The position numbers and the translations under genes are program-made. Positions 4,935 to 18,866 of a DNA stretch of 64,000 bases are shown piece after piece. This DNA is from an uncultured delta proteobacterium (lineage in GTDB: Bacteria; Desulfobacterota; Binatia; UBA9968), in NCBI GenBank assembly GCA_963727625.1, contig CAVSHR010000006.1:32001-96000 (forward strand), given 5' to 3'. The notes beneath the pieces are model-generated. The model did no database searches. It saw only the letters and a program-made list of their open reading frames with translations, and was not told the DNA's origin. The first letter of the stretch is position 1. Each line of letters starts with the position of its first letter.

Positions 4935-5268
4935 TAGAAAAACAGCCAGGCGACGCATCCTTGCGGGTCAGAACAATGCGTTCATGGGGCAATTCGCCTC
5001 GACAGTTTACCACCCTGTCACAGGACCATCAGCTATCGCCGCAATGAAGCGCGGCGCAGTCGGTTTATTATGATGCTGGGTCGTGGATTGGCGCAGTGAA
5101 CAATATCAAGTTTTTTTACATGCTGGCGCTTCGCTGAATGCACAGGATAGGCCTGGGCTTGGGAACGCTTGCGCTTCGATGATTCATTTATAATCCGGCG
5201 ATTTTAAACTCATAAGAACAACTTTCGCGGGCAATAAATTCGGTATTCCTATTGGATACGCTTCTACT

Positions 5269-5283
5269 AGGCACCGTTCTTGC
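5269..5283 (+). promoter_or_regulatory. Sigma-54 promoter of the ferritin-like gene
   Basis: AGGCACcgttcTTGC (GG-N10-GC), about 20 bp upstream of the start. Confidence 0.65.
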
Positions 5284-5302
5284 GTTTTTCTAAATATCAG
5301 AG

Positions 5303-6127
5303 GTGGCCATCATGAGGTCGTTTCCACATTGGAAGCTGAGCGATATAGCGTATGAGGACATTCGTCCCCGGCCATGGCTCAATGCGGAATCGCGCTTGTT
5401 ATATCTTTTGGCATCGGCGTCGTTCGTGGAAATCACTTCGGATCTCTATGCATCGGCGCTCGTCGATTTTTTTCGAGCGGACAGGGAAGTGACGGATTGG
5501 TTGAATAAACATTGGCTTCCCGAGGAACTCCAGCACGGCGTCGCTCTCAAACGCTACGTTAATACCGTGTGGCCGGAGTTCGACTGGGAATTCACGTATC
5601 AAAGTTTTTATCGAGAGTACTCGCAACGCTGTCAAGTCAAGGTACTCGGACCAACCTGGGCGTTGGAAATGGCGTCTCGCTGCGTGGTTGAGACGGGAAC
5701 GGCGAGCTTGTACACGATGCTGCAACGCCTGGTCAGCGACCCGGTATTACGCCGGCTCACCTGGCACATTAGAAATGATGAGATAGGGCACTACAAACAC
5801 TTCTACAGCTACTTTTGCCGCTTCCGGGAGCAAAAACCGACCGGACGTTACGCTTTGGCGCGAGCGTTATGGAGCCGCATCTCTGAAATCGATCAAGAAG
5901 ACGGCTACTACGCATACAAGCACGTGTTTACGGCCTGTCACCCCGAGCGGGTTTTCAATGACGATGATTACAGAAGGTTCTGCGACCATTATAAATCGCT
6001 TGCCCGGCAATATTATCCTTACACCATGGCGGCCAAAATGCTTCTCAAGCCGTTGGGACTCCCGCCAATGGCGAGCCAGCTAGCTGTTCCAATTATATCG
6101 GCGGGTGCAAAGCGCCTATGCGCATGA
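5303..6127 (+). CDS. Ferritin-like di-iron protein (acyl-ACP desaturase-like fold)
   Basis: Di-iron ligand pattern FVE...EELQHG...VVE...DEIGHY (two ExxH motifs). Confidence 0.85.
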   Translation: MAIMRSFPHWKLSDIAYEDIRPRPWLNAESRLLYLLASASFVEITSDLYASALVDFFRADREVTDWLNKHWLPEELQHGVALKRYVNTVWPEFDWEFTYQSFYREYSQRCQVKVLGPTWALEMASRCVVETGTASLYTMLQRLVSDPVLRRLTWHIRNDEIGHYKHFYSYFCRFREQKPTGRYALARALWSRISEIDQEDGYYAYKHVFTACHPERVFNDDDYRRFCDHYKSLARQYYPYTMAAKMLLKPLGLPPMASQLAVPIISAGAKRLCA

Positions 6128-6775: not shown

Positions 6776-7819
6776 CTACAAAATCCGATTGAACCACAGG
6801 AGCGAAAGCAACGCGGCGACCAGGGCGAAGAGCGCGGCGGCGCCGGCGAAGAGGGAACTGATTTCCATGTCCTTCTTTTCGAGCAGGAACTTGCTGTTGA
6901 GTGAGTCGTAGATCTTCTTTAAATCGTCGGCGCTGCCGGCGTAGAAATATTGGCCGCGGGTGATGTCGGCAATCGCTTTGAGCGTGTCTTCGTCGAGTCG
7001 CACGCGCATGGACCAGCCTTGGAAGCCGATGCTCTCGCCGCTTTTCGTGCCGAAGCCGACGGTGAAGATGCGCACGCCGCGGTCGGCGGCCAGGCGCGCC
7101 GCATCGAGGGAGTCGGGCCCGGTGGTTCGCTGGCCGTCGGTGAGCAATATGATCGCCGCGGATGTGTAGGAGCCGGGCGGGACCGGCTTGAACGGCGGCT
7201 TTTCAGTTTTATCAGCCTGATCAATCGGGACTCCGCGCGGGCCGTTGCGGCCGTAGATGAACGAGCTCACTTCGATGCCGGCATCGGGGAAGATCGTTGC
7301 GAGCGCGACGATGATGCCGCTGCCGATGGCAGTGCCGCGTTGCAGTTGGAAGCGATCGATCGCACCAACGATGTCGTCGCGATTTTGTGTCGGCACCTGC
7401 ACGACCGCCGCGGTTCCGGCAAACGACACCACGCCGATGCGCACGTTGGAGGGCTGCTCGGCGACGAACGCCTTGGCGGCTGCCTGGGAGGCGACAAGCC
7501 GATTGGGCTGGACGTCGGTGGCGCGCATGCTGCCGGAGACATCCATGGCGAGGATGATGGTTTGATGTTGGGACGGTAAGGTGACCACGGCGGTGGGGCG
7601 GGCGACAGCGACGAGCATGGCGACGAGCGCGGTCAGAAATAGAACCGGCGGAATATGGCGGCGAAACCTCTGGCCCGCGGCCAGCGCTTCTTTCACCATG
7701 CTCAAATTGGCGTACTTGAGCGCGGCCTGCTGCTTGCGGCGCAAGAGATAAAAATATCCCGCCACCAGCGCGGGGACAAGCAGGAGCAGCCAGAGCATCT
7801 CAGGCCAAAGAAATTTCAT
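6776..7819 (-). CDS. vWA domain membrane protein (BatA-like)
   Basis: N-terminal BatA-like TM segments, MIDAS DVSGSM, GTAIG, LLTDG and a C-terminal TM helix. Confidence 0.92.
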   Translation of the reverse strand: MKFLWPEMLWLLLLVPALVAGYFYLLRRKQQAALKYANLSMVKEALAAGQRFRRHIPPVLFLTALVAMLVAVARPTAVVTLPSQHQTIILAMDVSGSMRATDVQPNRLVASQAAAKAFVAEQPSNVRIGVVSFAGTAAVVQVPTQNRDDIVGAIDRFQLQRGTAIGSGIIVALATIFPDAGIEVSSFIYGRNGPRGVPIDQADKTEKPPFKPVPPGSYTSAAIILLTDGQRTTGPDSLDAARLAADRGVRIFTVGFGTKSGESIGFQGWSMRVRLDEDTLKAIADITRGQYFYAGSADDLKKIYDSLNSKFLLEKKDMEISSLFAGAAALFALVAALLSLLWFNRIL

Positions 7820-8765
7820 GGCTCCCTCTTAAATGCTGCGGCAGGCCGGCGCCCGCGGCCAACTGGCTGCGCCGCTTGCGCAGGTCGGCGAAGCGCAGAA
7901 TCGCATTCACCAAATCGTCGTTGGTCGATAACTCCAGCGCGTCCACGCCGGCCTGGGCAAAGGCCGAGCGCAGCTCCTTCTCTCGCTCCTCGGCCAGAGC
8001 GGCGAAGCGCTTGCGGAAGTTACGGTCATGGGTGTCGACGAACAACTGCTCGCCGGTCTCGGCGTCGCGCATCGTGATCAGTCCGAGATCGGGCAACTCC
8101 ATTTCCAATGGATCGTAGAGCCGCACGGCGATGATCTCGTGGCGGCGCGCGAGATACGCCAGCGGCTTGGCCCAGCCGGGCGCGCTGATGAAATCGGAGA
8201 CGACGAAAACGAGCGAGCGCCGTTGCATGACCCGGAGGGCGGTTTGGAGAAAATCTCTCAGGTTGGTCTCTGCCGAGCGCGCGGGCTCGGGGCGCGAGAG
8301 TATTCTGTGCAGAATATGCAGGACGTGGCGCCGGCCGCTCCGCGCCGGAATCATCGTGTCGACGCTGTCGCCGTAGAACAGCGCGCCGACGCGATTGCCG
8401 TGACGAGTCAGGAGCCGCGCCAACAGGGTGACGAATTCCGTCGAGACCGAACGCTTTTCGACTTGCGATCCGAACTCCACCGAAGGGCTCAAGTCGAGCA
8501 GGAACCACGCCGTCACTTCGCGGTCTTCGTTGTAGACGCGGATATAGGGCGTCTGCAGCCGCGCGGTGACGTTCCAATCGATGTAGCGGACATCGTCGTG
8601 ATATTGGTACTCGCGCAGGTCCGCGAGATCGAGCCCGAAACCGCGAAATAAAGTCCGGTAGTCGCCGTGCAGCAGGCCGTCCAGGCGCCGTATCACGGTC
8701 CACTCCAGGCGGCGCAGGATGCTTTCGGCGCCGGAGGCAGGAACGGGTTGTTGGACGGGACTCAT
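7800..8765 (-). CDS. DUF58 domain protein
   Basis: G.DLADLREYQYHDDVRYIDWNVTAR and VVSDF motifs; lies in a MoxR operon. Confidence 0.92.
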   Translation of the reverse strand: MSPVQQPVPASGAESILRRLEWTVIRRLDGLLHGDYRTLFRGFGLDLADLREYQYHDDVRYIDWNVTARLQTPYIRVYNEDREVTAWFLLDLSPSVEFGSQVEKRSVSTEFVTLLARLLTRHGNRVGALFYGDSVDTMIPARSGRRHVLHILHRILSRPEPARSAETNLRDFLQTALRVMQRRSLVFVVSDFISAPGWAKPLAYLARRHEIIAVRLYDPLEMELPDLGLITMRDAETGEQLFVDTHDRNFRKRFAALAEEREKELRSAFAQAGVDALELSTNDDLVNAILRFADLRKRRSQLAAGAGLPQHLRGSHEISLA

Positions 8766-8819: not shown

Positions 8820-8899
8820 TCGTGTTCGTGGCGCGTGTTCGTGCTCGGGACGAATTCACAATCACGATTCACACGGTAGGGGCGCCCGGTCGGCCCTAC
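8820..8899. repeat. Intergenic CGTGTT/CACGA repeat plus GTAG-type REP-like palindrome
   Basis: cgtgttcgtg-gcg-cgtgttcgtgctcg...cacgattcacacg followed by GTAGGGGCGcccggtcggCCCTAC. Confidence 0.6.
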
Positions 8900-9957
8900 G
8901 AACTTGCCGCGACTTTGACATGGGTCTCCAACGGTTTATCGGGCGCCGGGATACGCTGCATGATCCGGCCGATCAAATGATCGGGCGTGATGCCTTCGGC
9001 GAGGGCTTCATAGGTGAGCACCAGCCGGTGACGAAAGACATCCGGCACTAAATCTATTACATCCTCGGGCAAGACATAAGTTCGTCCGCGCAGGAACGCC
9101 AACGCGCGCGCGCCTTCGATGAGATTGATCGAGGCGCGCGGGCTGGCGCCAAAGGACAGGTATTTCGCCACATCGGCGACACCGAAGCGCTCCGGATCGC
9201 GGGTCGCGGTGGCAAGCCGCACGGCATATTGCTTGAGCGCCGGATCGACGTAGCCGTTCCGGCACTCTAGCTGGAGCGATTTCAACTGCTCGGTGCTGGC
9301 CATGGGCACGACGTCGTTCGGCGCTCCCGTGACGCGGTCGACGATGACGAACTCCTCTTCTTCGGTCGGATAGCCGACCAGCACTTTCATCATGAAGCGG
9401 TCCACTTGGGCCTCTGGCAACGGGTAGGTCCCTTCGGTCTCGATCGGGTTCTGCGTCGCCATGACTAAAAACGGCTCGGGCACATGGTGGCTCTCGCCGG
9501 CGATGGTTACCTGGCGCTCCTGCATCACCTCGAGCAGCGCGCTTTGCACTTTCGCCGGCGCGCGGTTGATCTCGTCGGCGAGCAGCAGATTGGTGAAAAC
9601 CGGTCCCAATGAAGTGGCGAAGTCGCCGGTCTTCTGATTGTAGATGCGCGTGCCCACCAGATCCGCCGGCACCAAATCCGGCGTGAATTGAATACGCTTG
9701 AACGAGCCGGTAATCGTCCGCGCCAGCGTCTTGACCGTAAGCGTCTTGGCAAGCCCCGGAACGCCCTCGACCAGCAGGTGTCCCTGCGCCAGCACGGCCA
9801 CGAGCACGCGCTCGAGAAAATGATCCTGGCCGACGATGACTTTCTTCACCTCGTAGAGAATGCGCTCCATGAGGGAAGCGACTTCACTGGGGTTGGTGTC
9901 TCTGTCCATATCTCGCTCTATTCTATCATTAGACTGCCGAGAGATCTCTTTCGGCAT
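8896..9957 (-). CDS. moxR: MoxR family AAA+ ATPase
   Basis: Walker [18 protein letters not shown], Walker [17 protein letters not shown]. Alternative start at 9909. Confidence 0.93.
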
Positions 9958-10059: not shown

Positions 10060-11004
10060 CTAGAACGGCGGCATGCCCGCAGCCGCGGCGGCGTTTTCAA
10101 TCGGCACCGCGAAGCCGATGCCGACGAAGACACGTTGCTCCGTCGGATTCAAAATAGCCGTTACGACGCCGATGACCTCGCCCTGGCTGTTCACCAGCGG
10201 ACCGCCCGAACTGCCGGGGTTCGCGGCGGCGTCGAACTGGATGAGATTGGTCAACACGCGCTTACCTTGCGGCGAGCGAAAGTCGCGGCGCAGGCCGGAC
10301 ACGACTCCCGCCGTCGCCGACGGGCCGATGCCGAACGGAAAGCCGACGGCGATAACTTGATCACCGGGCTTTAGATCGGCGGTGGAACGCATGGTCGCCG
10401 CGACCAGGTCATCGGGAATCTTGTGCGCCTGCAGCACCGCTAAATCATGCTCCGGCCGCACCCCGGTGACCGTCGCGTCGGATTCGAGGCCGTCAGCGAA
10501 GACAACTCGCACGCGTTTGGCGCCGAGGACGACATGGAGATTGGTCAAGATGATACCCTTGTCGACGATGACGACGCCGCTGCCGACGCCATTTTCGATC
10601 TCCTTGCCGCCGGCTTTGCCCGGTTCCAGGCGCCGCACCCGAACCACCGAAGGTCGAATGGCCTCGTACGCCTTGGCCGTCGGCGCGGGCAGAGCGTTGG
10701 TTTCGAGGGTGTGGAGTACTGCCGCGTTGATATCTTCCTGGGTGAGCTGGCGCGGCGCGGGCATGATCCAGGCGTGAGTCAACACGACGAGCAGCGCGAG
10801 TAGCACTGCGGCGCCGACCCAGAGCGCGCGGTCATAACGAGCGCAGAGGGTTCGCCAGCGCGAACGCAGTGGTTGACGCGGCACCTGCGCGGGATACGTG
10901 TTCTGGGCCTGACGGAACTCTGCTGTTTTCTGTGGCTGGCCGGCGGGGGCTGTCCCGCGGGGTGTAGACGAGCGGCTGGAGCTATAGAGCGGCGCCTTTT
11001 TCAT
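10060..11004 (-). CDS. Membrane-anchored trypsin-like serine protease (S1C, no PDZ domain)
   Basis: TM helix, GSGVV, LTNLHVV, DLAVL, NPGSSGGPL catalytic triad motifs. Confidence 0.9.
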   Translation of the reverse strand: MKKAPLYSSSRSSTPRGTAPAGQPQKTAEFRQAQNTYPAQVPRQPLRSRWRTLCARYDRALWVGAAVLLALLVVLTHAWIMPAPRQLTQEDINAAVLHTLETNALPAPTAKAYEAIRPSVVRVRRLEPGKAGGKEIENGVGSGVVIVDKGIILTNLHVVLGAKRVRVVFADGLESDATVTGVRPEHDLAVLQAHKIPDDLVAATMRSTADLKPGDQVIAVGFPFGIGPSATAGVVSGLRRDFRSPQGKRVLTNLIQFDAAANPGSSGGPLVNSQGEVIGVVTAILNPTEQRVFVGIGFAVPIENAAAAAGMPPF

Positions 11005-11526: not shown

Positions 11527-11808
11527 CTATCTGGGAATTTTGATCACCACGTCGCCGTGGATGCACGCCACGCAGGCGAGACGCTCATCCGAACCGGCTT
11601 TCATCATGTCCAACGTCAGTTCTTCGTTGTCGCTCTTCTCGCTCAGGTTCTGGCAGCCGTCGACGATCTTGACCCGGTCGGTGCCGCAAATCGCTTCAGT
11701 GCAATCATGGCGCAACTTCAAACCGTTGCGGACTGCGGCCACGAGAATGGTGGCGCCATCGTCGACTTCAAAACTAGCGCCGGAAGGCATGAAAGTAATT
11801 TTCGGCAT
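11527..11808 (-). CDS. 2Fe-2S ferredoxin with atypical C-x4-C-x2-D motif
   Basis: G.TIL.AA...G...HDCTEAICGTD...RLAC ferredoxin pattern. Confidence 0.85.
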   Translation of the reverse strand: MPKITFMPSGASFEVDDGATILVAAVRNGLKLRHDCTEAICGTDRVKIVDGCQNLSEKSDNEELTLDMMKAGSDERLACVACIHGDVVIKIPR

Positions 11809-11814
11809 ACAAGA

Positions 11815-12702
11815 CTACGCGGCCAGGCTTTTGATCCGATCGATGGCCTCATCGACCATCCACTCGGGAGTCTCGTTGGCGCCGATGACGGCAACTTTTT
11901 CTTTGCCGAGGAACCACCCGGGACGCAGATCGTCGAGTTTCTCGATCTTGTAGACGTTGGGATTAAATGCGCGGCCGACTTCGAGCATGCGGGTCGTCAT
12001 CCCTTCAGTCCAGCCGAACACGATCAGCACTTCGACCTGCTTGGCGAGCTTCTCCACTTCCGGAAGCCGCTGCAAGGAATCGATACATGCCGTGTTGCGC
12101 ACCCTCACGTTGGCGAAGCGCTCGAGAAGCCGCGCCATGATTTTTTTGTAGGTTTCGATCCAAAACGTGGTCTGGACGATCACCCCGATCGGTTCGAAAC
12201 GTGTGCGCCGAATCTTGTCCACATCGTCTTCGGTTTCGACGATGAAAACCTCGCGGCCTTTTTCCTTGGCGATCCCCTGAATGCGCGGAATGCCGTGGTG
12301 CGTCGGGCTGCTTAGCACCACCAGGTCGTAGCCTTGATCCAACAGTTCAAGCTCGGCTTCCTCCTGCTGAAGGACGAACGGGCAGGTGGCGTCGGCCAAA
12401 AGCTCAAGCCCTTGCGCGCGCGCCTGCCGGCGAATTTGCGGCGGCGCCCCGCGCACCCCGTAGATGAGCTTCTCGCCGCGAATCGACTCCATGTCGTTGG
12501 TCGAGCGAATGCCTTTTTCGCCAAGACCGTCTTTTTTGAAGGCCACGAAGTCGAGATCCGGTCTGAGCGACCAGACCGCCAAGCCGTCGCCGTACCGCTG
12601 TACCATCTTTTGATGAATCGCGCCGGCCCGGTGCACGCCGACGCACAAGCCGCTCGCCGGGATGCCCTTGGTCTCGCTAAAGTCGCCCTTGATCACTTCC
12701 AT
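11815..12702 (-). CDS. Divergent IspH/LytB-fold iron-sulfur protein
   Basis: GLCVGVHRA, DATCPFV, QTT, NTAC and TPEW align with IspH, but the substrate-binding motifs are altered. Confidence 0.85.
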   Translation of the reverse strand: MEVIKGDFSETKGIPASGLCVGVHRAGAIHQKMVQRYGDGLAVWSLRPDLDFVAFKKDGLGEKGIRSTNDMESIRGEKLIYGVRGAPPQIRRQARAQGLELLADATCPFVLQQEEAELELLDQGYDLVVLSSPTHHGIPRIQGIAKEKGREVFIVETEDDVDKIRRTRFEPIGVIVQTTFWIETYKKIMARLLERFANVRVRNTACIDSLQRLPEVEKLAKQVEVLIVFGWTEGMTTRMLEVGRAFNPNVYKIEKLDDLRPGWFLGKEKVAVIGANETPEWMVDEAIDRIKSLAA

Positions 12703-12975
12703 ATTCCCCCCTTTTAAGCGAAACGATTCGACTGAAACGGTGGAAACATTTTCAGACCACGCTTACTGCCGACCGGTGCCTATGTCAAATTTACTTAAAG
12801 GAACGCCGCTGACCCCTTTCGGTGCCGTCACGATGCCGCTGCTGCGCCCGTACCAGCGCTGTTTTTATCACTTGACGCCAATCGTGAAGCGATCCTATCT
12901 TTCGTGTACACTCGATAGGATTTGCGCAATGCGGTTTTATAACGTTTTTTTCGACCCGCCAAACAAGGAGGCATT

Positions 12976-13437
12976 ATGGCCAAGCTAAGACATATCGCCG
13001 TGCATACGCCCGACCCAGAGAAGACCGCGAAGTTTTACAAGCGCGTGTTCGACCTGGTCGAAGTGGGACGCACCGATTCGCCCATCGCCAAGGGAATCTA
13101 TTTGAGCGACGGCACGATCAACTTGGCTGTGCTGCGCTTTAAGACGGTCGAGGCTGCCGACCGGCAAGACGGACTCGGACCGGTGTTCGGCTTGCACCAC
13201 TTCGGTTTTTGGGTCGACGATATGGAAGAGACGCGGCGCCGCCTGGAAGAGTCGGGCGCGGACTATCGCTTCGGTCGCCCCGAGGCGGCCACGACGACTT
13301 TCTTCGAGGAGAAATACAAGGGACCCGACGCGGTCATGATCGATATCACGACCCATGGCTGGATCGGCGCGCAAGCGCCGGCGAAAGACGCCGAGAAAGC
13401 GAGCGAGACTGAAACACCCGCGGTCTCTGCAAAATAG
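12976..13437 (+). CDS. VOC / glyoxalase family protein
   Basis: LRHIAV..PDPEKTAKFYKRVF, GLHHFGFWVDD, GPDAVMIDI. AGGAGG RBS. Confidence 0.9.
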   Translation: MAKLRHIAVHTPDPEKTAKFYKRVFDLVEVGRTDSPIAKGIYLSDGTINLAVLRFKTVEAADRQDGLGPVFGLHHFGFWVDDMEETRRRLEESGADYRFGRPEAATTTFFEEKYKGPDAVMIDITTHGWIGAQAPAKDAEKASETETPAVSAK

Positions 13438-14256: not shown

Positions 14257-14832
14257 ATGGCACTTTTACCGATCGGCGCAAAATTTCCCGAGATCGAGTT
14301 GAAAGATATCGATGGAGATTCGATCGCCTTTCCGGCGGCGTTCAAGAGCGCGCCGGCCTCGATCGTGTTTTTCTACCGCGGCCAGTGGTGACCATGGTGC
14401 CGGGCCCAGGTTGCGGCCTTTGTCTATGAGTACGGAAGGTATCAAGAGCACAGCGTGGCGATCGTCGGCATCAGTCCGCAAACGGCGGAGAACGGCCGGC
14501 AACTGCGCGAGCGGCTAATTCGCGACGCGCAAATCGATCAGGCGGCGCACAAGAATCACGACGCCTTCTGGCAAGACCCCAAGAGCGCGTTTCCGTTTCG
14601 CTTGATCGGCGATCCGGAAAATTCTCTGGGCCGACGGGTCGGTGCGGTACGCGAAGAACACTGGGCCGGGCCCATGGTCCATCCGACGACTTTTTTGGTT
14701 GACGCCGACGGCTTTGTCCGCTGGCGCTTCCAGTCGAAGATGGCGCAACGGCGGCCGAGCCCGATACTGCTCGCCAACATGGCGGGCGCGCTGGCGAAAA
14801 AGCTGCCTCTGCCGGTTTATATTGAAGTTTGA
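14257..14832 (+). CDS. AhpC/TSA (peroxiredoxin-like) selenoprotein with UxxC motif
   Basis: AAAGGAG RBS, ATG at 14257, frame reads ...VFFYRGQW-TGA(14389)-PWCRAQ and continues in frame into the 14455-14832 ORF (VGISP, LIGDP, PTTFLVD..G.VRW). Confidence 0.88.
14392..14425 (+). promoter_or_regulatory. Candidate bacterial SECIS hairpin
   Basis: GGCCCA-GGT-TGCGGCC stem-loop starting about 11 nt after the in-frame UGA. Folded by eye. Confidence 0.5.
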
Positions 14833-15958: not shown

Positions 15959-16462
15959 CTACCAGTTAATTCCCTTCGGCGATTTCGCTCTGGCTTTTTT
16001 CGGGTTCGATTTCGCCGCGTGTTTTTGACAATCGGCGCACAGCCCTTCGAGGTGGATCGAATAATCTATGACCTCGAAGCCGATGCCGCCCAAACTCGGC
16101 AAAGCGATCTTGCTCAGGCTCGGATGATCGATATCCGCGACGCGGTTGCAGCTCCGGCAGACCAGGTGGTGGTGATGATCGGTGTTACCGTCGAACCTGG
16201 CCGAGGCCTCGAAGTGGTTGGTTCGGCGCGCCAATCCTAAATCGACCAGTGTCTCAAGAGCGCGATAGATCGTCGTGCGCGACACACCCGGCATGCGTTC
16301 TTTGACGTCCTCGTAAAGCTGGTCTACCGTCGGATGATCTTCGCGGCTGAGCAGCGCGTCGAGCACGACCCGTCTCTGCACGGTCACCGGCAGGCTGCGC
16401 TCGTGCGAGATCGCTTCGAGAAGCGCTAGTTTTCTTTGCTTTAAGTTTCGAGAGGTTTTCAC
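15959..16462 (-). CDS. Fur/PerR family transcriptional regulator
   Basis: TVQR, HPTVDQLY, SRTTIYRAL, HHHHLVCRSC and GLCADC; downstream of katG. Confidence 0.92.
   Translation of the reverse strand: MKTSRNLKQRKLALLEAISHERSLPVTVQRRVVLDALLSREDHPTVDQLYEDVKERMPGVSRTTIYRALETLVDLGLARRTNHFEASARFDGNTDHHHHLVCRSCNRVADIDHPSLSKIALPSLGGIGFEVIDYSIHLEGLCADCQKHAAKSNPKKARAKSPKGINW

Positions 16463-16648: not shown

Positions 16649-18866
<2,218 letters not shown>

Follow-up and report, generated by a model that had tools for sequence, protein, structure and literature searches.

IspH (LytB) is, to our knowledge, regarded as a one-reaction family, and a divergent member of this family in the DNA of an uncultured bacterium of the class Binatia raises the question whether its fold has been put to another use. 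The window, a stretch of 64,000 nucleotides, carries the gene for this protein, here called LytBL ("LytB-like"), directly upstream of a gene for a small ferredoxin. Is LytBL the HMBPP reductase of the MEP pathway, or a paralog with a different substrate? The first-pass annotation, comparing residues by eye, had proposed a paralog. The features concerned are the following:

11527..11808, minus strand: 2Fe-2S ferredoxin-fold partner, 93 aa (Pfam Fer2, 41.8 bits; cut-off 21)
11809..11814, minus strand: spacer of 6 nt separating TAG, the stop codon of LytBL, from the ATG of the ferredoxin, read from the sequence
11815..12702, minus strand: LytBL, paralog of the IspH-fold [4Fe-4S] enzyme, 295 aa, with a Pfam LYTB match
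12703..12975: intergenic region of 273 bp upstream of LytBL and common with the VOC gene, presumed promoter site
12976-13437, plus strand: VOC gene, divergent from LytBL across the 273 bp

The profile search gave a full-length match of LytBL to Pfam LYTB (147.6 bits, residues 17-291), and phmmer searches against solved IspH structures retrieved those of A. aeolicus (3dnf, E 7.5e-35) and E. coli (E ~1e-18). The AF2 model of LytBL reached a pLDDT of 94.4. With this model, Foldseek found IspH structures only at E<=0.001, with a TM of 0.80-0.86 to E. coli IspH, and a search of the ESM Atlas returned LytB clusters only. The TIGR00216 score of LytBL was 118.0 bits versus a cut-off of 187.85, and relatives scored similarly (L019, 125; P0125, 108; P0129, 127); LytBL stayed below every NCBIfam IspH equivalog cut-off.

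Comparison of the catalytic residues in phmmer alignments revealed that C20, C107 and C206 of LytBL correspond to the cluster cysteines C12, C96 and C197 of E. coli IspH (numbered from what we take to be the start of the native protein), and Q177-T178-T179 to the Q166-T167-T168 loop, which is kept in all family rows. None of these six residues varies in clade A (119), clade B (15) or clade C (7). The diphosphate pocket of IspH is described in the accessible text of PMC8837944 as H41, H74, H124, S225, S269, T168, N227 and Q166, of which LytBL keeps only H124 (as H135), T168 and Q166. The place of H41 is taken by D51 in the alignment with A. aeolicus or by F52 in that with E. coli, the place of H74 by R84, those of P125-E126 by H136-G137 and that of S269 by E277, while the S225/S226/N227 loop becomes G-W-T-E-G-M, shorter by one residue and containing E233 and M235. 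Of five side chains that bind the diphosphate and could be mapped, four are replaced and H124 stays. Every point of the earlier by-eye comparison, namely an IspH fold with cluster cysteines and Q-T-T kept and pocket residues exchanged, was upheld in these alignments. At the replaced positions, canonical IspH sequences (n = 90) carry H in 87, E in 87, S in 88, N in 88 and S in 88 cases, whereas G137 occupies the place of E126 in 143/143 family rows, and no single acid is found at this place across the family members. According to PMC8837944, IspH retains 0.3% of its activity as the E126Q variant and next to nothing as E126D or E126A.

The conservation alignment defined a set of family-specific residues in LytBL: R47, D51, R84, Q113, E114, H135-H136-G137, R140, D208, S209, W231, E233, M235, N276 and E277. 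The new residues are fixed in 119/119 close relatives and largely so in two distant clades; since the positions concerned are near-invariant in the 90 canonical IspH sequences, the substitutions are not due to chance. R84, R140 and H136 are invariant in clades A-D, and R47 and H135 in clades A-C; clade B has Q in place of E233, and both clade B and clade C have V or A in place of E277. In the AF2 model, R47, R84, R140, H135 and H136 follow the central strands, either in a loop or in the first turn of a helix, where the pocket residues of canonical IspH are also found. From alignment and secondary-structure position, R47, R84 and R140 appear to line the pocket together with H135 and H136, and this looks like an anion-binding pocket. 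The first-pass annotation had envisaged a non-phosphorylated substrate, possibly neutral or cationic; what has become invariant in LytBL, however, is three arginines and an extra histidine beside the kept H135, and an anionic substrate is therefore the better expectation. Arginine and histidine bind diphosphates as well as other anions, and an arginine-bound diphosphate (HMBPP or another prenyl diphosphate) may also fit the pocket. As judged from the aligned residues, the substrate pocket of LytBL is rebuilt and the catalytic core of IspH is kept.

A second, canonical ispH, which the first-pass annotation had proposed as a check, was found in the same genome (G000:C3:140216-141049; LYTB 319.4 bits, TIGR00216 327.6 bits), and ispG is present as well. 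The family tree, from a quick search, was rooted at the midpoint and has SH-aLRT as its only measure of support; in it, 31 rows (clades A, B, C, D and P0220) are parted from 39 canonical rows by a branch with an SH-aLRT of 99. P0220, although labelled canonical, groups with the divergent LytBL side, and P0277, P0278, P0280, P0281 and P0289 fall inside clade B. By this tree, LytBL belongs to a small clade that branches deeply within the LytB/IspH superfamily. Taken with the missing E126 and the scores below the equivalog cut-offs, the sequence comparisons support the proposal that LytBL is an IspH paralog distinct from the MEP-pathway enzyme. Among the matches listed, at least 120 clusters share 76-93% identity with LytBL, and clades with the new residues extend to 39-44% identity. 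Six pairs inside the Binatia group with an estimate gave a dN/dS of 0.05-0.13; dS was saturated (>1.2) or not computable in most pairs and moderate only in the pair L019-L028 (dN 0.050, dS 0.77). Proteins of clade B are very rich in acidic residues (D+E 21-22%), a composition known from salt-in halophiles, and the mevalonate route is used by many such organisms. Two metagenome scans for the genomic context of clades B and C gave no match; P0288 and P0129, from these clades, stand on contigs of 44.7 kb and 26.9 kb.

LytBL was found in 51/401 genomes of the class Binatia, all within one order, and not in the other 350. It occurs in 27/27 genomes of the genus g273, in 19 of the 71 genomes of its own family (52 negative) and, patchily, in 10/21 other genomes of its own genus. 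LytBL is thus accessory by its distribution; it probably belongs to catabolic gene neighbourhoods and is not a housekeeping enzyme.

The two-gene unit of LytBL and its ferredoxin, with the 6-bp gap given in the first-pass annotation, was confirmed and recurs. Both genes occur in 15 of the 71 family genomes, in each case next to each other and with gaps from a few to ~140 nt; LytBL alone occurs in four, the ferredoxin alone in none and neither gene in 52. In the own genus, the ferredoxin was not found in 5/5 LytBL-negative genomes (96-99% complete), and in g273 it is present in 5/5 genomes at a distance of 390-1540 kb from LytBL. These counts ignore the kinship of the genomes, and the co-occurrence table overstates its weight since related genomes are not independent. 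The ferredoxin is nevertheless a genuine partner of LytBL, even if not obligatory everywhere, as no ortholog was found in four of the 19 LytBL-positive family genomes (G656, G732, G788 and G794). Alignment of eight orthologs showed that only C36, C41 and C79 are invariant cysteines, that an invariant D44 occupies the place of the third cysteine in the C-x4-C-x2-C motif and that C52 and C82 of the window ferredoxin are not conserved. The set of four cysteine ligands is thus absent, and given the missing fourth cysteine the cluster of this protein is putative. The 2Fe-2S cluster of E. coli SdhB likewise has Asp for the third Cys; the C-x4-C-x2-D...C pattern of the LytBL partner resembles it within a ferredoxin fold, and the partner is a free-standing protein of 93 aa. 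At the locus L038, a ferredoxin reductase (Pyr_redox_2 + Reductase_C) stands divergent from a TauE-LytBL-Fdx-UbiD array. The structure prediction of a complex of LytBL with the ferredoxin gave no answer (score 0.01, mark 0.32) and has no bearing either way.

The divergent VOC gene of the window had also been pointed out in the first-pass annotation. The arrangement itself stands, on the plus strand of the window, but a conserved partnership was rejected: the window VOC was found by tblastn in 0/37 related loci, and blastp found one homolog, 5 kb off, in L058. There is a loose recurrence of VOC-family genes (VOC346 stands upstream in 14/37 loci, a two-domain VOC in L055, L056 and L058), but as different proteins at differing distances. 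Other variable neighbours are cupin, ornithine-cyclodeaminase-like, VOC, GST and NMT1-type binding proteins and DAHP synthase. Neighbour counts were taken from tblastn where possible; the codon-position G+C gene filter missed short genes, including the window ferredoxin and the LytBL of L006, and long antisense ORFs in G+C-rich DNA mislead plain ORF picking. A consensus scan of 12703..12975 found no promoter-like minus-strand site for LytBL and one plus-strand site (12872-12901) not above shuffles, and the scan for promoters and terminators as a whole gave nothing above shuffles. The search for sequencing runs listed no RNA run; the best DNA run had a share of 0.23.

LytBL is not expected to be an HMBPP reductase, since E126 is replaced by Gly, pocket residues are lost, the TIGR00216 score is low and canonical ispH and ispG are present. 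It probably carries out a reduction that nobody has described, on a substrate other than HMBPP, and our best guess is a ferredoxin-driven reductive dehydroxylase. The small 2Fe-2S ferredoxin with its three Cys and one Asp would hand electrons to LytBL, and a two-electron reductive cleavage would take place at the unique iron of the three-Cys [4Fe-4S] site. As in IspH, an allylic or benzylic alcohol would most likely be dehydroxylated, its hydroxyl being held by the Q-T-T loop, again as in IspH. The three arginines and two histidines would probably bind an anionic moiety of the substrate, be it a carboxylate, a sulfonate or a phosphate. In IspH the proton is donated by E126 with H124 as relay; for LytBL a different invariant acid would have to take over, candidates being D/E51, E/D114 and D208.

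In a rival reading, LytBL would serve the prenylated-FMN/UbiD system, either by making the prenyl donor for UbiX (e.g., by converting a hydroxylated monophosphate into dimethylallyl monophosphate) or by acting just before or after one particular UbiD in a single pathway. A UbiD-family gene lies 3' of LytBL in 27/37 related loci, these being the g273 loci and L038; in g273 it is within ~150 nt of LytBL in 24/26 loci, together with a SLOG-cluster-4 gene, whose protein has a Moco carrier protein among its PDB relatives, and an AI-2E transporter. The distant L038 (61% identity) has the order LytBL-Fdx-UbiD. The own genome contains 45 UbiD-family matches and a single UbiX, so that a high demand for prenyl donor is expected, and a monophosphate would suit a pocket stripped of its diphosphate residues. 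IspH-UbiA fusions, as presented in the accessible text of PMC4746011, are a precedent for IspH tied to prenyl-using enzymes. However, the 26 UbiD-linked g273 loci represent one genus with LytBL sequences 88-94% identical, which leaves two independent cases at most, and chance adjacency is not unusual where a genome contains ~45 UbiD genes. No UbiD is adjacent in the window or in the other f1/f113 loci, the own-genome UbiX stands in another operon far from LytBL (with CTP-dependent riboflavin kinase, FMN_dh-family and PNPOx-like genes), and most UbiD-rich Binatia genomes (350/401) lack LytBL. The UbiD ortholog (69-77% identity) occurs in LytBL-lacking genomes (G404, G443, G532, G628, G716 and G730) and is missing from the LytBL-positive G738, and obligatory UbiD coupling was accordingly rejected as a general rule. 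A role in the UbiD system has a small chance of being correct.

A second HMBPP reductase isozyme, with the diphosphate held by arginines, another acid as proton source and a private ferredoxin, e.g., for particular redox or oxygen conditions, would explain the intact catalytic core (three Cys, Q-T-T and the H124 equivalent). Arginine and histidine side chains are good diphosphate ligands, and the presence of ispG shows that the organism produces HMBPP. Two lytB genes in one bacterium are on record, as for M. tuberculosis in PMC4550268. Against an isozyme stand the glycine at the E126 place in every member, given the nearly dead E126 mutants of IspH (PMC8837944, accessible part), the joint replacement of four of the five mapped side chains, the scores far below all equivalog cut-offs, the patchy occurrence even in the genus with a canonical copy always beside LytBL in its own genome, and the halophile-like acidity of clade B; we consider an isozyme unlikely. 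LytBL might instead not be a reductase, its unique iron acting as a Lewis acid for hydration, dehydration or a lyase reaction, or its cluster as an Fe-S sensor. NadA, the quinolinate synthase, combines the same fold and a three-Cys cluster with a dehydratase-type reaction, an Arg-rich pocket suits di- or tricarboxylates as it does in enzymes of that kind, and four LytBL-positive genomes lack the ferredoxin; IspH itself hydrates alkynes, according to the accessible part of PMC8837944. The tight, adjacent co-occurrence of the ferredoxin, its retention when unlinked and the reductase in L038 argue for electron input, and a non-reductive function appears quite improbable. A decaying or non-functional ispH duplicate would account for the loss of the catalytic residues of the parent enzyme and for two matches that look damaged (G548, in two overlapping pieces, and G722, ending at residue 256). 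Yet all listed LytBL matches are open frames without internal stop, and the low dN/dS, the residues fixed in 119 clusters and shared by the clades at 39-44% identity, and the confident model leave decay hardly credible; the first-pass annotation had named it among the outcomes that would count against a new function.

In the reading that we prefer, LytBL is a ferredoxin-fed reductive enzyme acting on an anionic non-HMBPP substrate and accessory in Binatia, which we judge to have about an even chance of being right. The stronger statement, that ferredoxin-coupled reductive dehydroxylation of an anionic non-HMBPP substrate is the first job of the LytB/IspH-fold family outside isoprenoid precursor synthesis, and in its boldest form a partnership with the much enlarged UbiD/prFMN decarboxylase machinery of Binatia, is rated just short of even. 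The proposed enzyme shares with IspH the trefoil three-domain fold, the three cluster Cys, the Q166-T167-T168 loop and H124, and a ferredoxin-type donor, known for IspH, is inferred for LytBL. It differs in the change of E126 to Gly, in the replacement of H41, H74, S225, N227 and S269, and in invariants of its own (R47, R84, R140, H136, Q113, E114, D208 and N276), as well as in being accessory, with a canonical ispH in the genome and its own adjacent ferredoxin. M. tuberculosis, with LytB1 and LytB2, likewise has two LytB-family genes in a MEP genome; the accessible text of PMC4550268 describes this lytB pair as two IspH homologs with overlapping function, whereas LytBL has lost the HMBPP-specific residues and is set apart on that description. 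In the IspH-UbiA and IspH-RPS1 fusions (Rao et al., 2015; PMC4746011), a LytB-family protein is also tied to another function, and IspH-UbiA, through its link to prenyl-using aromatic metabolism, is reminiscent of the UbiD genes next to LytBL in g273 and L038. The IspH domain of these fusions is catalytically active or presumed to be canonical, as far as the accessible text of that source describes it, whereas LytBL is unfused and non-canonical; the accessible part of its sequence network describes no clade without the HMBPP residues. NadA and Dph2 share three alpha/beta domains and a three-Cys [4Fe-4S] cluster with an open iron; the Foldseek matches are weak (NadA 5f35, prob 0.85, TM 0.29; Dph2 6q2e, prob 0.72; TM 0.2-0.3 overall) and come with no sequence match. 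NadA catalyzes a dehydration/condensation and Dph2 a radical SAM-like chemistry. A literature search, with few subscription journals covered, found no paper on the LytBL clade or on any LytB/IspH-family enzyme whose function lies outside HMBPP reduction.

IspH has been studied mainly as a drug target and for its rare organometallic Fe-S catalysis. If the proposed function is true, this organometallic chemistry has been reused for another substrate, and LytBL offers a naturally occurring variant with which to examine what in the IspH mechanism depends on E126 and the diphosphate. The case would also be a warning for annotators of IspH-family proteins. The three-Cys and Asp ferredoxin and the possible UbiD link are entry points to the metabolism of the uncultured Binatia, and in its boldest form, if true, LytBL would provide the prenyl monophosphate donor for prFMN, whose cellular source is still unsettled.

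The gene of the LytB/IspH-fold paralog (LytBL) is followed by a ferredoxin gene (Fdx), which begins 6 nt past the TAG stop of LytBL.

Genes in and around the LytBL unit of the window
11815-12702, reverse strand: LytBL, a 295-codon open frame; Pfam LYTB over residues 17-291 (147.6 bits)
11527-11808, reverse strand: Fdx, 93 codons, 2Fe-2S ferredoxin fold; Fer2 at 41.8 bits
12976-13437, divergent from LytBL: VOC/glyoxalase-family gene, 273 bp between the two genes
8896-9957, reverse strand: MoxR-type AAA ATPase, followed at 7800-8765 by a DUF58/VWA protein as is common for MoxR
10060-11004: trypsin-like protease, near the MoxR pair

The genome of the window (15 contigs, 6.6 Mb, 98.45% complete, 6.3% contamination) contained two LYTB matches, LytBL and a copy on contig C3 at 140216-141049 (319.4 bits). 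The latter scored 327.6 bits with TIGR00216, above the cut-off, and the canonical IspH residues were present in its alignment; ispG was found as well (420.7 bits). The first-pass annotation had regarded LytBL as a paralog and not the MEP-pathway enzyme; with a canonical ispH and ispG in the same genome, LytBL is indeed a paralog alongside the MEP pathway. A quickly built maximum-likelihood tree with 70 rows (SH-aLRT support, midpoint root) separated the LytBL group from canonical IspH by a branch with a support of 99, placing 31 rows (12 of clade A, the close Binatia relatives; 11 of clade B, the P0125 group; five of clade C, the P0129 group; two of clade D; and the odd protein P0220) against 39 canonical rows, and clades A and B were joined at 91. 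The AlphaFold2 model of LytBL (mean pLDDT 94.4, built on 101 aligned sequences) matched only IspH entries of the PDB at E<=0.001 in Foldseek, with TM values of 0.80-0.86 to E. coli IspH, substrate-bound entries included. LytBL is a member of the LytB fold superfamily but not of the HMBPP reductase family, HMBPP being the substrate of IspH.

To map its residues, LytBL was aligned by phmmer with IspH proteins of known structure (A. aeolicus 3dnf at E 7.5e-35 and E. coli entries at E about 1e-18); the E. coli numbers rest on what we take to be the start of the native protein. The cluster cysteines C20, C107, and C206 are retained, as are the Q-T-T loop (Q177-T178-T179) and H135, corresponding to H124. 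R84 occupies the place of H74, H136-G137 replace P125-E126, E277 stands at the place of S269, and the S225-S226-N227 loop is replaced by G-W-T-E-G-M, shorter by one residue. At the place of H41, alignment with A. aeolicus IspH puts D51 and alignment with E. coli IspH puts F52. Each point of the earlier by-eye reading was matched by these alignments. Passages of a review (PMC8837944) list H41, H74, H124, S225, S269, T168, N227, and Q166 as the diphosphate pocket of IspH and give 0.3% activity for E126Q, with E126D and E126A almost inactive. Comparison of this list with the alignments revealed that LytBL still has the cluster site and the loop that holds the hydroxyl, and that it has lost the proton donor together with most of the pocket for the diphosphate.

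The substitutions were followed through an alignment of 119 clade A, 15 clade B, seven clade C, two clade D, and 90 canonical IspH proteins.

Residues at LytBL positions in the LytBL family and in canonical IspH
84: R in 143/143 of clades A-D; H in 87/90 canonical IspH
137: G in 143/143 of clades A-D; E in 87/90 canonical IspH
136: H in 143/143 of clades A-D; mostly P in canonical IspH
140: R in 143/143 of clades A-D; mostly G, A or S in canonical IspH
47: R in all of clades A, B, and C; G in 83/90 canonical IspH
276: N in all of clades A, B, and C; A in 78/90 canonical IspH
233: E in clades A and C, Q in B; S in 88/90 canonical IspH
235: M in clades A and B, mostly K in C; N in 88/90 canonical IspH
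277: E in clade A, V or A in B and C; S in 88/90 canonical IspH

Q113, E/D114, D208, and S209 are likewise family-wide. In the AlphaFold2 model all family-specific residues lie in loops or first helix turns that come after the central strands in each of the three domains, where they are predicted to occupy the places of the canonical pocket residues. Pairwise dN/dS between LytBL and its orthologs of the Binatia group was 0.05-0.13; dS was unsaturated in a single pair, L019-L028, for which the ratio was 0.065 (dN 0.050, dS 0.77). These results demonstrated that the substitutions are conserved in homologs, fixed and without decay. Two possibly damaged copies were seen, one matching in two overlapping pieces (G548:C427:468-1732) and one with a match ending at residue 256 (G722:C20:13840-14610).

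A search of 5.8 billion proteins returned 369 hits; the 120 matches listed were 76-93% identical to LytBL, nearly all of 294-307 residues, and several were named as Binatia or 'Deltaproteobacteria' MAG proteins. The sources annotate family members as HMBPP reductase or hypothetical proteins. When 1.84 billion cluster representatives were scanned in full with HMMER, the divergent group proved to be small (30 proteins with E<=1e-30, many of them fragments); full-length relatives beyond the Binatia group were P0125 (44% identity), P0129 (39%), P0141, and P0144, and canonical IspH followed at <=133 bits. Clade B (P0125, P0277-P0290), the nearest outgroup clade, is strongly acidic (D+E 21-22%, K+R about 9%), a composition resembling that of proteins of salt-in halophiles.

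Among 401 sampled genomes of the phylum, the paralog occurred only in the genome of the window; the best matches in the others (<=143 bits, 34% identity) were at the level of canonical IspH. Within the class it was present in 51 of 401 genomes, a count that takes in two genomes flagged unpublished (G728, G738). Besides the genome of the window, its own family f1 had the paralog in 19 of 63 genomes (10 of the 21 others of its genus), family f112, with the single genus g273, in 27/27 and family f113 in 4/4; 17 other families had none (0/306). LytBL is therefore accessory and restricted to one order. The 37 public loci are labelled Candidatus Binatia or 'Deltaproteobacteria', except for one, L038 (61% identity), which is labelled as an alphaproteobacterial MAG.

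Both LytBL and Fdx were searched in the same 71 family genomes. Fifteen had both, always on one contig and separated by between a few and about 140 nt, four had LytBL only (G656, G732, G794, and the partial G788), none had Fdx only and 52 had neither, a pattern that is no statistic because related genomes are not independent. The Fdx query gave no match in five of five own-genus genomes without LytBL (96-99% complete). In g273 Fdx does not adjoin LytBL; an ortholog (64-70% identity) was kept in all five genomes tested, 390 kb-1.5 Mb away. Fdx is a true partner of LytBL, as first proposed from the adjacency in the window. Only C36, C41, and C79 are invariant cysteines among eight Fdx orthologs, C52 and C82 of the window protein being extra and not conserved. 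An invariant D44 occupies the third-Cys place of the C-x4-C-x2-C motif, similar to E. coli SdhB, which has an Asp ligand of the same kind.

The divergent VOC gene, which had been noted as a neighbour, is not conserved, being found by tblastn in 0/37 loci, and none of the MoxR ATPase, the DUF58/VWA protein, and the trypsin-like protease of the window is conserved beside LytBL elsewhere. Across the f1 and f113 loci the neighbouring genes are variable and include cupin, ornithine-cyclodeaminase-family, 4Fe-4S dicluster, GST, carboxymuconolactone-decarboxylase-family, luciferase-like, and DinB genes, NMT1-type solute-binding proteins with ABC transporter genes, DAHP synthase with an ATP-grasp gene, and a Mrp/NUBPL Fe-S carrier. 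Elsewhere in the window, a catalase-peroxidase-like gene (16649-18836, reverse strand) spans two overlapping frames, 16854-18836 (660 aa) and 16649-17362 (237 aa), both matching Pfam peroxidase, the longer one ending in Arg/Gly-rich nonsense; the frameshift near 17360-17400 means either that the gene is truly a pseudogene or that the assembly is wrong there. Next to this gene lies a Fur-family regulator (15959-16462). An AhpC/TSA-family ORF of 125 aa (14455-14832, forward strand) covers profile positions 64-123 of 124, the last half only, and is either truncated or starts in another frame.

In g273 (26 loci) LytBL is followed by a UbiD-family decarboxylase and a SLOG-cluster-4 protein, with an AI-2E transporter next in 23 of the 37 loci. 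The UbiD proteins share 92-96% identity (best PDB relative 7pda), and PDB relatives of the SLOG protein include a Moco carrier protein. L014 and L016 have an extra 1.3-1.5 kb between LytBL (5001-5882) and UbiD (7418 and 7160, respectively), which the other 24 are without; a DUF4143/AAA_14 ATPase gene lies near LytBL in several g273 loci. The order in L038 is TauE-family exporter, LytBL, Fdx, UbiD, with a ferredoxin reductase (Pyr_redox_2 and Reductase_C) and a TPP enzyme divergent from this unit, a layout that makes an electron chain from NAD(P)H through reductase and ferredoxin to LytBL plausible. Involvement in the UbiD/prFMN system, to which the UbiD gene downstream of LytBL in g273 and L038 points, appears unlikely. 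The adjacency was seen in one genus and one outlier, and an ortholog of the g273 UbiD (69-77% identity), found in 48 of the 71 family genomes, occurs in six own-genus genomes without LytBL and is missing in the LytBL-positive G738. In the genome of the window it lies on another contig than LytBL, among unrelated genes. The link between LytBL and UbiD is a lead, not a rule. This genome has 45 UbiD-family matches on nine contigs (for example C5:355379-356812, C4:402634-404052, and C2:378683-380092; two with an internal stop, two short) and a single UbiX. The expansion is very large, and preliminary candidate counts, 19-132 across 71 relatives, hint at a family-wide trait. The UbiX row (C5:1088000-1092500; L050, 6673-10196), with CTP-dependent (archaeal-type) riboflavin kinase, FMN_dh-family, PNPOx-like, and XdhC-like genes, looks like a flavin/prFMN supply operon.

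We argue that the substrate of LytBL is not HMBPP, because E126 and the diphosphate pocket are replaced wholesale and fixed in the family, LytBL fails every IspH equivalog model, the clade is separate, the distribution is accessory and a canonical copy exists in the same genome. An alternative HMBPP reductase is quite improbable. A non-redox hydratase, lyase or sensor is a slightly weaker candidate still, and decay, against which the family-wide fixation and low dN/dS speak, is extremely improbable. Retention of the cluster site and of the hydroxyl loop argues for IspH-type chemistry, with which the dedicated Fdx and the L038 reductase concur: a substrate oxygen would bind the unique iron and undergo two-electron reductive cleavage, with electrons supplied by Fdx. 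The substrate had been proposed to be neutral or cationic; the new invariant side chains (three Arg, an extra His beside the retained one, and two or three acids) would instead, through the Arg and His residues, suit an anionic group such as a carboxylate, sulfonate or phosphate, a diphosphate also being possible. In the full-text literature searched, of incomplete coverage and without supplements, neither a LytB-family enzyme with another substrate nor the LytBL clade was described. We give about an even chance to LytBL being a ferredoxin-driven reductive dehydroxylase, or a related C-X reductase, which would act on an anionic non-HMBPP substrate in accessory catabolism.
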